Assembly: GCA_964016885.1 (NCBI GenBank)
Contig: OZ024766.1
Coordinates: 12,834,001-12,898,000 of the forward strand
DNA from: Eledone cirrhosa
Lineage: Eukaryota
Length of the DNA: 64,000 nt
Direction: 5' to 3'
Position numbers and translations under genes: made by a program
Notes under the pieces: model-generated
Told to the model about the DNA's origin: nothing
Databases searched by the model: none
What the model saw: only the letters and a program-made list of their open reading frames with translations
In this document: positions 50,063 to 61,112 of the stretch, one piece after another
Layout of the letters: every line of letters begins with the position of its first letter
Position numbering within the stretch: the first letter of the stretch is position 1

Positions 50063-50966
50063 CACAGTCCACGCTGTAATGTGGCCATGTAGGCAACACG
50101 GTAAAAACCTCCCAGTCCCACACTGTAAATGTGGTTGGTGTTAGGAAGGGCATCCAGCTGTAGAAAACCCGCCAGACAGTCCACGCTGTAATGTGGCCGT
50201 GTAGGCAACACGGTAAAAACCTCCCAGTCCCACACTGTAAATGTGGTTGGTGTTAGGAAGGGCATCCAGCTGTAGAAAACCTGCCAGACAGTCCACGCTG
50301 TAATGTGGCCGTGTAGGTAACACGGTAAAAACCTCCCAGTCCCACACTGTAAATGTGGTTGGTGTTAGGAAGGGCATCCAACTGTAGAAAACCCGCCAGA
50401 TAGTCCACGCTGTAATGTGGCCGTGTAGGCAACACGGTAAAAACCTCCCAGCCCCACACTGTAAATGTGGTTGGTGTTAGGAAGGGCATCCAGCTGTAGA
50501 AAACCCGCCAGACAGTCCACGCTGTAATGTGGCCGTGTAGGCAACACGGTAAAAACCTCCCAGTCCCACACTGAAAATGTGGTTGGTGTTAGGAAGGGCA
50601 TCTAGCTGTAGAAAACCCACCAGACAGTCCACGCTGTAATGTGGCCGTGTAGGCAACACAGTAAAAACCTCCCAGTCCCACACTGTAAATGTGGTTGGTG
50701 TTAGGAAGGGCATCCAGCTGTAGAAAACCCGCCAGACAGTCCACGCTGTAATGTGGCCGTGTAGGTAACACGGTAAAAACCTCCCAGTCCCACACTGTAA
50801 ATGTGGTTGGTGTTAGGAAGGGCATCCAACTGTAGAAAACCCGCCAGACAGTCCACGCTGTAATGTGGCCGTGTAGGTAACACGGTAAAAACCTCCCAGT
50901 CCCACACTGTAAATGTGGTTGGTGTTAGGAAGGGCATCCAGCCGTAGAAAACCCGCCAGACAGTCC
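50063..50966. repeat. 112-bp tandem repeat (~8 copies) within the LINE 3' UTR
   Basis: Unit with GGTTGGTGTTAGGAAGGGCATCCAGCTGTAGAAAACC recurs every 112 bp. Confidence 0.96.
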
Positions 50967-51852: not shown

Positions 51853-52034
51853 CAATACATAAACAGAGAAAGCCTTAAGCGATACTCTGACCAACTCCAT
51901 CTCACTCAACAAACATTAGGATATACCTAAGTATTTTCCCAATTTAGTGTTTGGGGTGCTAACTAATCAGTATTTTGTGGATAGCTGGTTGTATTACTTT
52001 ATATGAGACATTATTAAATAAATATCTCTTTCCT

Positions 52035-52158
52035 TCCAGACGGCCGTTTCATTATAAGATTTCTACAATTTGGGATAAATAATTTCCAGGTTATGTAGAA
52101 ACTTGTATATAATCCATAGTTTTATACACAAGCGGGCTCTTATAAACTCATCAGTGGA
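52035..52158 (-). ncRNA. Type I hammerhead ribozyme, canonical core, large branched stem II
   Basis: UCCA-CUGAUGA-GUUUAUAAGA...UCUUAUAAU-GAAA-CGGCCG-UC-UGGA. Confidence 0.75.
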
Positions 52159-52706
52159 TGCCCAAATTAATATCGATATAAGAATTATATCGACATTAAT
52201 AGATTAGTGATGGTCTCCCTCAGCGCTAAGAAGATCCAGCGCTTAGAAAATCCAGCAGTCCTCCCAAAGAAAAATTACACGCTGTCCCCAAAAGGGTAAA
52301 AGGAGGTCATCTTAAAATAAAACAATATATACGCTGGTCATTTAAACCTGTTAGGTATTAACCACGTGTATAAGAACTGAATTGGAAATTTAAAAGAATA
52401 ATCATATATAACCAATGCATACACAGAGATATTAAAACATTATATATATATATATATATATATATAATACATTTAGAAACACACAGATACATGCGGACAC
52501 ACACATATATACATGAATGCATCCGCACCCAACTGTGAGTTAAGGGTGCCAACTTCACCGATGTTGCTCAATGAATGACTGGGACAGACCAATTCAGTTT
52601 GAACCAGACTGAACCAGTATCAGAGTTAAAAATACATTATGAAGAGAGAAGAAACATTTAGATATAATTAGTAATAAAATGTATCATACCTAAACTGTTC
52701 CTAAAT

Positions 52707-52794
52707 TCCTCGACTACGTAGTTTCGTGGCATAAACAAAAACAATATATCAAAGATATAGAGTCCTTGCGAGGTCTGCCGACTTATCAAGAGGA
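52707..52794 (-). ncRNA. Type I hammerhead ribozyme (U3-A8 variant), inverted copy
   Basis: Reverse complement of 53423-53510. Confidence 0.8.
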
Positions 52795-53422
52795 TACCTC
52801 ATTTTACTAGTCTCAAGAACGCGTCTACACGACGTGAGAAAGAATCCCAAAAGGCGGAGGGGGAGATAGTCACGCGATATAACGGTCGAGAAACAGAGCT
52901 AAGCCTCCTATAACCACGAAAAAAATACCACGGAGGCGGAGGGGATATTCATATCGAGGCCGTAGAAGAGGTAGTGAAGAAGGCGAGAAGTATGAGTAAT
53001 GGAAGCTTTCCAGTTGTCCCCACACTTCAAAGATTGGTCTGTCCCAGTCATTCATTGAGCAACATCGGTGAAGTTGGCACCCTTAACTCACAGTTGGGTG
53101 CGGATGCATTCATGTATATATGTGTGTGTCCGCATGTATCTGTGTGTTTCTAAATGTATTAATAACTCCCTCTGGTCGAGCAATCTTTGAAGTGTGGGGA
53201 CAACTGGAAAGCTTCCATTACTCATACTTCTCGCCTTCTTCACTACCTCTTCTACGGCCTCGATATGAATACCCCCTCCGCCTCCGTGGTATTTTTTTCG
53301 TGGTTATAGGAGGCTTAGCTCTGTTTCTCGACCGTTATATCGCGTGACTATCTCCCCCTCCGCCTTTTGGGATTCTTTCTCACGTCGTGTAGACGCGTTC
53401 TTGAGACTAGTAAAATGAGGTA

Positions 53423-53510
53423 TCCTCTTGATAAGTCGGCAGACCTCGCAAGGACTCTATATCTTTGATATATTGTTTTTGTTTATGCCACGAAACTACG
53501 TAGTCGAGGA
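53423..53510 (+). ncRNA. Type I hammerhead ribozyme (U3-A8 variant), predicted cleavage after C53505
   Basis: Stem I UCCUC/GAGGA; core UUGAUAA and GAAA; stem II GU(C)GGCA/UGCCAC; palindromic stem III ACUACGUAGU; GUC triplet. Confidence 0.8.
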
Positions 53511-54013
53511 ATTTAGGAACAGTTTAGGTATGATACATTTTATTACTAATTATATCTAAATGTTTCTTCTCTCTTCATAATGTATTTTTAACTCTGATAC
53601 TGGTTCAGTCTGGTTCAAACTGAATTGGTCTGTCCCAGTCATTCATTGAGCAACATCGGTGAAGTTGGCACCCTTAACTCACAGTTGGGTGCGGATGCAT
53701 TCATGTATATATGTGTGTGTCCGCGTGTATCTGTGTGTTTCTAAATGTATTAATAACTCCCTCTGGTCGAGCAATCTTTGAAGTGTGGGGACAACTGGAA
53801 AGCTTCCATTACTCATACTTCTCGCCTTCTTCACTACCTCTTCTACGGCCTCGATATGAATACCCCCTCCGCCTCCGTGGTATTTTTTTCGTGGTTATAG
53901 GAGGCTTAGCTCTGTTTCTCGACCGTTATATCGCGTGACTATCTCCCCCTCCGCCTTTTGGGATTCTTTCTCACGTCGTGTAGACGCGTTCTTGAGACTA
54001 GTAAAATGAGGTA

Positions 54014-54101
54014 TCCTCTTGATAAGTCGGCAGACCTCGCAAGGACTCTATATCTTTGATATATTGTTTTTGTTTATGCCACGAAACTACGTAGTCGAGG
54101 A
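54014..54101 (+). ncRNA. Type I hammerhead ribozyme (U3-A8 variant), predicted cleavage after C54096
   Basis: Identical to 53423-53510, 591 bp downstream. Confidence 0.8.
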
Positions 54102-54170
54102 ATTTAGGAACAGTTTAGGTATGATACATTTTATTACTAATTATATCTAAATGTTTCTTCTCTTCATAAC

Positions 54171-54244
<74 letters not shown>

Positions 54245-56089: not shown

Positions 56090-56418
56090 GGAGGCACATG
56101 GCTTAGTAGTTAGAGCATTGGCCTTGCAATCGAAAGGTTGTGAGTTCAATTCCCAGACCGGCTGATGTGCTGTTTCCTTGAGTAAGACACTTTATTTCAC
56201 ATTGCTCCAGTTTACTCAGCTGTAGAAGTGAGTTGATAGGGACTAATGTCCCTATCATTCCACTGCAAAGTGGTCGTGGAGGTGCCACGGCAAAAAAGCA
56301 CCCAGTACTCACTGTAAATGAGGTTGGTGTTAGGAAGGGCATCCAGCTGTAGAAATCAAGCCAGAATCCTTGCAAGCAGGGAAAAGTGGACGTAAAATGA
56401 AATGATGATGATGATGAT
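56090..56418 (+). mobile_element. tRNA-derived SINE with RTE-derived 3' part and (GAT)n tail
   Basis: A box TGGCTTAGTAG, B box GAGTTCAATTCC, CCTTGAGTAAGACAC core, GGTTGGTGTTAGGAAGGGCATCCAGC, tail shared with LINE 47464-51070. Confidence 0.88.
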
Positions 56419-60526: not shown

Positions 60527-60691
60527 TTTATATGTCAATATATGTCTGTGTATGTATGTGATAGTTAGGTGTGTAACTACAGTTACGCGCCGTTAGAAGG
60601 ACTCAATGTTGTTACGGGGTTCGTCTCGATTAGGATGTATTCCAGGGTTACGGCTGTAATTTACAGAGTGTAGATTGAAAAGAATCGAAGT

Positions 60692-60775
60692 CATATTACA
60701 ATTGTTTCGATATCAGGTTAGGGTACAATCAAGATGACGGGACCCGACACTTTATTTGACATCTCTTCAGATATG
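60692..60775 (-). ncRNA. Type I hammerhead ribozyme, canonical core
   Basis: CAUAU-CUGAAGA-GAUGUCA...UGAUAUC-GAAA-CAAUUG-UA-AUAUG. Confidence 0.8.
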
Positions 60776-61112
60776 TGAATATATAGCTGCAAAGGCAGAT
60801 TTAAACTGTTAATAGAGGTCTCGATATCTATTTACAATTATTAATGGGTCTTTAGGGGGCCGAGGGAGTAACGGTATGTTTACATTTAAAGGTTGAAGAA
60901 TAAATAATAATAAATATTATATATATATAACTTCTACGGAGTATATAAATCTTATTTAATTCCTTACATCAGAAAACGAATGTTACCCTTTCAGATGAAA
61001 TATGGTGTAAAGAATAAAATTTAAGAGTTTTGTTTTCTCAATCATATATTTCTGCTAATATATATATATATATATCTTTTTCAGCTGAACTGATTGGAGA
61101 CGCGTGAAATGA

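Follow-up and report, generated by a model that had tools for sequence, protein, structure and literature searches.

A hammerhead retroelement of Eledone cirrhosa with two fixed 3' ends, probably copied from one reused RNA monomer by a Penelope-like enzyme

A set of 591-bp units in a 64-kb stretch of Eledone cirrhosa DNA (the whole 64,000-nucleotide stretch is called the window below) is probably the insertion of a protein-free hammerhead retroelement, a non-LTR retrozyme, produced by two-site copying of one likely circular monomer by a Penelope-like enzyme. Three observations from related loci carry this reading: arms arranged head to head unite two different 3' end sites, the same pairing occurs in an autonomous Penelope-like element (PLE) family of the same genome, and sequence variants, among them a strand-specific excess of A>G changes, tend to fill every unit of an array and both of its arms.

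The element in the window and its hammerhead motifs

The element (Table 1) holds the 591-bp unit as an inverted arm of 572 bp and a tandem arm of 1137 bp that are about 99% identical, as an earlier note on this DNA had described, with few base differences between the minus-strand arm at 52465-53036 and the plus-strand arm at 53033-54169. The note's account also held for the junction, where the arms overlap by exactly ATTG, and for the setting of the element in (TA)n, which proved to be (TA)13 on one side and (TA)35 on the other; such flanks would mask any target-site duplication. Close to its site A end the tandem arm carries one substitution and a 2-nt deletion. The longest Met-started frame of the element has 75 codons and no PLE protein match was found within the 64-kb window, in agreement with the claim that neither a reverse transcriptase (RT) nor an endonuclease is encoded. 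The further claim that the copies start at different phases of the unit is correct for the 5' (junction) ends but not for the outer 3' ends, which are fixed across the family. The monomer had also seemed long for a metazoan retrozyme, a view we revise, as 591 nt falls inside the published range of 51-972 bp (10.64898/2026.07.22.740005).

Table 1. Features of the element, in window positions; unit numbering starts at m1 = 53506, the base after the predicted cut
Feature	Positions	Strand	Basis
Left (TA)n target tract, (TA)13	52441..52466	.	
Inverted arm, from m266 across the cut site to its end at site B (m247)	52465..53036	-	
Hammerhead motif (type I) in the inverted arm; cut predicted after 52712	52707..52794	-	
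ATTG microhomology joining two 5'-truncated ends	53033..53036	.	Arm alignment and sequence
Tandem arm, from m119 across two cut sites to its end at site A (~m80)	53033..54169	+	
Hammerhead motif 1, predicted cut after 53505	53423..53510	+	
591-nt monomer between cut sites (m1-m591)	53506..54096	+	
Site A (m71-80): 3' end across the family, putative reverse-transcription start 1	53576..53585	+	
'Tail', ~165 nt between sites A and B, two predicted hairpins	53586..53752	+	
Site B (m238-247): 3' end across the family, putative reverse-transcription start 2	53743..53752	+	
Hammerhead motif 2, predicted cut after 54096	54014..54101	+	
Right (TA)n target tract, (TA)35	54172..54241	.	

The hammerhead call rests on a purpose-made descriptor and not on Rfam, a scan of which returned no hammerhead family at E<=1 and weak miRNA matches only. 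The descriptor matches at all three places where the earlier note had put a type I hammerhead, with cut sites after 53505 and 54096 on the plus strand and after 52712 on the minus strand, and its background over 20 shuffles was 0.1 matches per shuffled window (0 for the strict form). The core belongs to the U3-A8 variant; stem I has 5 bp, stem II is long, and stem III is palindromic, with 10 bp predicted to pair in a dimer. Core columns are nearly invariant across about 335 units. The U3-A8 variant has been described for schistosome PLEs, and PLE-type hammerheads are reported to cleave poorly (PMC4209133); among Xenopus retrozymes, one of nine constructs cleaved and eight of nine gave no cleavage (10.64898/2026.07.22.740005). 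In a 161-nt segment, the predicted energy of the hammerhead fold is -29.8 kcal/mol against -34.7 kcal/mol for the lowest-energy fold. Covariation among 15 hammerhead regions showed no gain over a shuffle control (195/500), with the fifth helix mis-registered, and the double changes found by RNAalifold in 9/167 pairs on six units are counted as no evidence. Five arms begin at m1-3 where 1.3 would be expected (P=0.01), which may be a weak hint of cleaved templates.

Two more hammerhead-like motifs and one unrelated tandem repeat were seen in the window. Directly left of the element, at 52030-52170 on the minus strand, lies an unrelated motif with a predicted cut near 52039. It has a C3-G8 core, a palindromic stem III and a very long stem II, is about 190 nt away from a (TA)n tract, and probably terminates a different PLE or retrozyme family. 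The other motif, at ~60690-60790 on the minus strand, has a palindromic stem III and a cut near 60697. A 112-bp unit is present at 50064-50966 in 8.1 tandem copies that are 97% alike; the descriptor finds no hammerhead in this array, and part of the unit recurs as a dispersed SINE-like repeat with a solo match at 56310-56365.

Family size, fixed ends and the pairing of arms

A search of the genome with the monomer gave 923 candidates, of which 40 were scored, yielding 208 matches; the matches listed are 99-100% identical. The exact motif in which m80 is joined to TA occurs 2,013 times (reversed control, 0), and the family comprises at least 2,013 dispersed insertions; the m245-247 end motif, searched in the window's variant only, occurs 183 times. 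We examined 138 loci of an estimated total of at least 2,700 insertions, of which 38 were taken by top identity, 60 by the m80 end motif and 40 by the m245-247 end motif, so that in 100 loci one end was picked by an exact end motif while the partner end was free of selection. Assignment of the 2,013 site A ends to an ORF-bearing element was considered and rejected, all 60 of those sampled belonging to the retrozyme family.

The 3' ends of arms fall at sites A and B, with 203/223 at m80, m245 or m247, and (TA) repeated at least four times follows 217/223 of them. The 5' ends are scattered along the unit. The earlier note's picture of a young, non-autonomous, hammerhead-bounded element inserted in the manner of Penelope is borne out across the 138 loci. 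Its description of the copies as circularly permuted applies to the scattered 5' ends, but the 3' ends sit at two sites and are not freely permuted. Small clusters of 5' ends were seen at m174-180 and m371-377, the bases of predicted hairpins (10 and 9 of 219 arms, within 5 nt), which suggests stalls of the RT.

Contiguous head-to-head pairs, sought by a search symmetric for both ends, follow a strict rule: 82/82 are A/B, with no A/A and no B/B pair. Two further A/B pairs, at L066 and L084, have gaps of more than 60 nt and stand outside this tally. Set aside were L075, which has one odd end at m36, L147, which is cut by the edge of the extracted stretch, and the second copies in L101 and L102, which are local duplications; an apparent A/A pair at L151 was rejected as a neighbouring relative in which the second arm continues past A. 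In the top-identity set, whose loci were selected without regard to their ends, single arms divide almost evenly between A (seven) and B (eight), and independent use of the sites would therefore give about half same-site pairs. Overlaps of at least 2 nt were found at 41/69 junctions, a BLAST-defined count that may be an overstatement. By analogy with PLEs, we infer that one PLE subunit serves each end site and each DNA end. The A/B rule alone does not distinguish a circle from a linear multimer. In the literature searched, mostly open-access articles, there is no report of strict end pairing.

A sister family with 1,825 candidates, which matches the unit at about 74% identity along its length, has the same hammerhead core and both end sites, and its three opposite-strand pairs seen are all mixed-end. 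No same-strand PLE motif was found in 30 of its loci, and since this family is also ORF-free, the lineage has been without an ORF for some time. Members were seen at L107:2616-2930 and L221-L250, and L151:142-430 holds an intermediate relative that shares the hammerhead core and the pair of end sites. Several more hammerhead families were noted at L121, L124, L136, L138, L139, L140, L222, L223 and L238, most of them 40-145 nt from (TA)n tracts. Such tracts also collect nested insertions, as at L079, where the element lies within a tract that ends a Neptune-type copy.

Relation to Penelope-like elements

The same genome holds a Neptune-type PLE family (L098, L099, L123, L126, L127, L129 and L140) that encodes an RT, a CX4CX2C linker and a GIY-YIG domain in long frames; the L098 frame is apparently frameshifted upstream, and in L100, a member of a related family, the frame runs for 1025 codons from its ATG. 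The label reflects the C-terminal position of GIY-YIG in the domain order and the CX4CX2C linker rather than an RT tree, and would also admit Nematis. This family has a U3-A8 hammerhead with a palindromic stem III, and its copies end in (TA)n at +76-80 and +141-146. Its head-to-head pairs comprise six mixed, one odd and no same-site pairs. A comparison of the unit with 53 PLE loci (30 + 23, from 10,597 GIY-YIG candidates) gave no match beyond simple repeats and one nested copy, and the partner is therefore inferred from behaviour. On this footing we hold with reasonable confidence that the mobilising partner is a Neptune-type PLE, and the sequence evidence makes it very likely that the element itself is a non-autonomous PLE-type retroelement. 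Published work describes a PLE protein that cuts and extends both strands, starts at two internal sites and is a predicted dimer; in vitro, uncleaved RNA was its main substrate, start sites were not homologous to the target and no reads ended at the cut site (PMC11167929). The PLE 'tail', an extension of 30-40 bp that is often confined to one end (PMC8557442, PMC3846280), has been equated with two internal RT start sites (PMC11167929), and the origin of PLE inverted arms with a one-end tail is stated to be open (PMC8557442).

Two other origins of this architecture were weighed. An ordinary remnant, the 5'-truncated pseudo-LTR (pLTR) of an ORF-bearing Penelope element, would account for the PLE-type hammerhead, the tail and the inverted arms, and at L170 the 5' end of an arm is joined to PLE coding sequence. 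This junction, formed by a truncated ORF (L170:1609-2700, minus strand) from a PLE family without the linker motif that abuts the arm and is not continued on the arm's far side, may be read as a template switch or a target deletion. It is one of 138 loci; PLE coding sequence lies within the extracted stretch at ten loci and is joined to an arm at L170 only, while 59/60 single-arm 5' flanks are free of such a join. Nor is any upstream body common to the 60 flanks, save short inverted arms and a 147-bp match at L063 that ends short of the junction, and the 591-nt head-to-tail units lack an ORF, as do those of the sister family. The possibility, raised in the earlier note against its own reading, that other copies would always be the pLTR of an ORF-bearing Penelope is not borne out, with one joined locus among the 138. 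From these sequence comparisons, the pLTR-remnant explanation appears largely refuted, and we give it only the slightest chance. Inverted arms could also arise by fold-back self-priming on an antisense template, as in the rotifer PLE model, and the head-to-head geometry agrees with the description given there (PMC3846280). However, the 5' ends of paired arms lie within 20 nt in phase in 8/77 pairs against 5.3 expected, arm lengths within pairs are uncorrelated, and the edited-looking strand is the sense strand. Fold-back junctions were rejected for want of an excess of close-phase 5' ends, and this origin of the inverted arms is very improbable.

Variant patterns and the RNA template

Within arms, the sequence reads through the cut site 356 times, and the unit junctions are exact at the cut site in 355/355 cases. 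Variants found in at least five insertions are present in all covering units in 190/211 cases and in both arms in 96/111, leaving 15/111 inherited variants that differ between arms. Among private variants, 28 fill all units, 15 of these spanning both arms, and 11 are in some but not all units. A change made at the RNA stage, or in a single donor unit, that appears in every unit and in both arms indicates that one monomer was copied repeatedly. A change on a linear multimer would mark single units, and mixed templates would give mosaic arrays, which are rare. The repeated copying of one monomer proposed in the earlier note is thereby supported, and the variants make it likely that one RNA monomer was reused for all units and both arms; a circle is the simplest template for such copying. 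Arrays also turn over after insertion, as indicated by the partial-unit variants, the differences between arms and a 3-unit block duplication at L083. That block was considered as a circular trimer and rejected, the other arm being without the marks. A 621-nt contig from four sequencing runs of unrecorded kind spans one unit and fits tandem DNA and a circle alike.

The variants that fill arrays are strongly asymmetric. On the ribozyme strand, A>G makes up 28/72 all-unit variants and T>C 10/72 (expected share 0.38, P=1e-5), while single-unit changes comprise 8/172 A>G and 29/172 T>C. In arrays with at least three covering units, A>G accounts for 21/36 all-unit but 2/97 single-unit changes (P=7e-13). 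The excess recurs in each of three samples and persists when all-unit variants are polarised on the sister family (A>G 24, T>C 7). Per base, the rates are 28/132 for A>G and 10/213 for T>C, an asymmetry of about 4.5-fold that rises to about 11-fold with at least three units. A-to-I editing gives A>G on one strand, and on the strength of this pattern we lean towards ADAR as the source. Candidate editing positions include m14, m277, m340, m357, m395 and m537. The same mostly open-access literature holds no report of edited retrozyme copies.

The neighbour preference of ADAR appears only as a non-significant trend (a 5' G at 3/28 A>G sites versus 28/132), so a DNA-level origin of the mark in the donors stays a rival: monomer reuse would hold, but the A>G changes would stem, not from ADAR, but from polymerase error or from DNA mutation linked to transcription of the donor loci. 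Transcribed DNA in mammals has a sense-strand A>G bias, which counts for such an origin, yet DNA strand asymmetry is usually smaller than the roughly 4.5- to 11-fold seen here, and predicted pairing is higher at A>G sites (0.75 versus 0.61, figures that carry no significance value). We regard this origin as doubtful, though well worth weighing. Reuse of a monomer is itself called into question if a PLE dimer began copying at A and B on an uncleaved linear multimer transcribed from a donor array, with arrays later lengthened and homogenised by unequal exchange and gene conversion and the hammerhead a weak passenger. The PLE protein mainly used uncleaved RNA in vitro (PMC11167929), the 356 read-throughs require an intact bond, and both the L083 duplication and the variants confined to some units fit post-insertion change. 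Such a template should, however, leave single-unit marks, whereas A>G shows the opposite distribution; moreover, private variants at L147 fill all 7-8 units of both arms, and several young lineages each have long uniform arrays. We therefore consider the linear multimer distinctly unlikely and retain the reused, likely circular monomer.

Proposed mechanism and comparison with known systems

Under the monomer-reuse reading, a tandem transcript would be cut by its hammerheads, which probably act as dimers or are assisted by protein, and the cut monomers would be ligated into a 591-nt circle, some adenosines of the RNA monomer being edited to inosine. A Penelope-like, probably Neptune-type, enzyme would cut a (TA)n tract, and the two subunits of its RT-endonuclease dimer would hold the RNA at A and at B, respectively. 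A single cDNA would be primed by each of the cut DNA ends, aided by the TA-like bases at the start sites, and both RTs would pass the ligated cut site repeatedly. Joining of the two cDNA ends through microhomology would then give a head-to-head insertion, and failure of one cDNA a single arm. In its boldest form, in which the Penelope dimer grips one hammerhead-made circle at two fixed sites, priming occurs on both sides of the (TA)n cut and both cDNAs roll round the circle, writing A-to-I edits into every unit, the scheme is a tentative one. If true, this dimer-on-one-circle reading would prove from genome sequence that an animal retrozyme retrotransposes by a rolling circle, the family would be evolving largely by RNA editing, and the PLE architecture of inverted arm plus tail would have a general explanation.

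Retrozymes, their Penelope link, the 'tail' and a unit of such length are already known. A specialist would find three features new: the pairing of two fixed end sites, its counterpart in an autonomous element, and the A>G mark that spans whole arrays. The family is a large, young natural experiment on retrozyme movement and on PLE inverted arms, in which a strict two-site end rule is common to a retrozyme and an autonomous element of the same genome. The strand-specific A>G mark tells changes at the RNA stage apart from those at the DNA stage and speaks for the reuse of one monomer, a variant test applicable to any retrozyme family; if editing is its source, it would be a route by which RNA edits become heritable. 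An in vitro assay could start from the family's 591-nt monomer as a defined substrate, with two predicted start sites and with candidate enzymes to hand, and the long-proposed round-and-round copying of a likely circular RNA becomes testable.

Non-LTR retrozymes are tandem type I hammerhead repeats, with circles reported in coral, mussel and axolotl, and PLEs have been proposed as their movers (PMC7229834); a 2026 preprint ties retrozymes to pLTRs (10.64898/2026.07.22.740005). Both sources state that the mechanism of mobilisation is open, and in their available text neither describes end sites or a mutation signature for retrozymes. In the mostly open-access literature searched, neither this family nor any cephalopod retrozyme is reported. 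Like metazoan non-LTR retrozymes, the Eledone element is tandem and ORF-free, with one type I hammerhead per unit, GC below 50% (42%), a stable predicted fold (folding z -5.16), a length within the published range, and PLEs in the same genome. Its hammerhead differs in being of the PLE type, U3-A8 with a long stem II, and every sampled insertion is a short, dispersed array in (TA)n that has two fixed ends and, in many cases, an inverted arm. Circles have been demonstrated for metazoan non-LTR retrozymes; for the Eledone family a circle is the likely form.

The RT and GIY-YIG ORF between pLTRs that defines an autonomous PLE is absent, whereas the inverted, 5'-truncated arm with a tail at one end that marks PLE mobilisation is found in 82/82 pairs. 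The insertions share with those of PLEs (PMC8557442, PMC3846280, PMC11167929) partial tandems, a head-to-head 5'-truncated arm, a one-end tail, two internal RT start sites and microsatellite targets. Unlike PLEs, the retrozyme has no ORF and its tail is about 165 nt rather than 30-40; its start sites end in TA-like bases that match the target, whereas Anolis PLE starts are non-homologous (PMC11167929), and its one-end tail is strict where that of PLEs is described as 'optional' or 'often' present. The Neptune-type family resembles the retrozyme in its U3-A8 core, palindromic stem III, (TA)n target and mixed-end pairs, and in a first end about 76-80 nt after the cut and a second preceded by TTTCTAA. 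It differs in its 66-nt tail, short stem II and encoded RT and GIY-YIG, and the two have no alignable sequence in common. A further parallel is found in Chlamys PLEs such as MRC1, which are likewise non-autonomous, multicopy head-to-tail elements moved by PLE enzymes but whose 3' ends, unlike those of the retrozyme, resemble the autonomous partner and most of which are described as lacking canonical hammerheads (PMC8557442).
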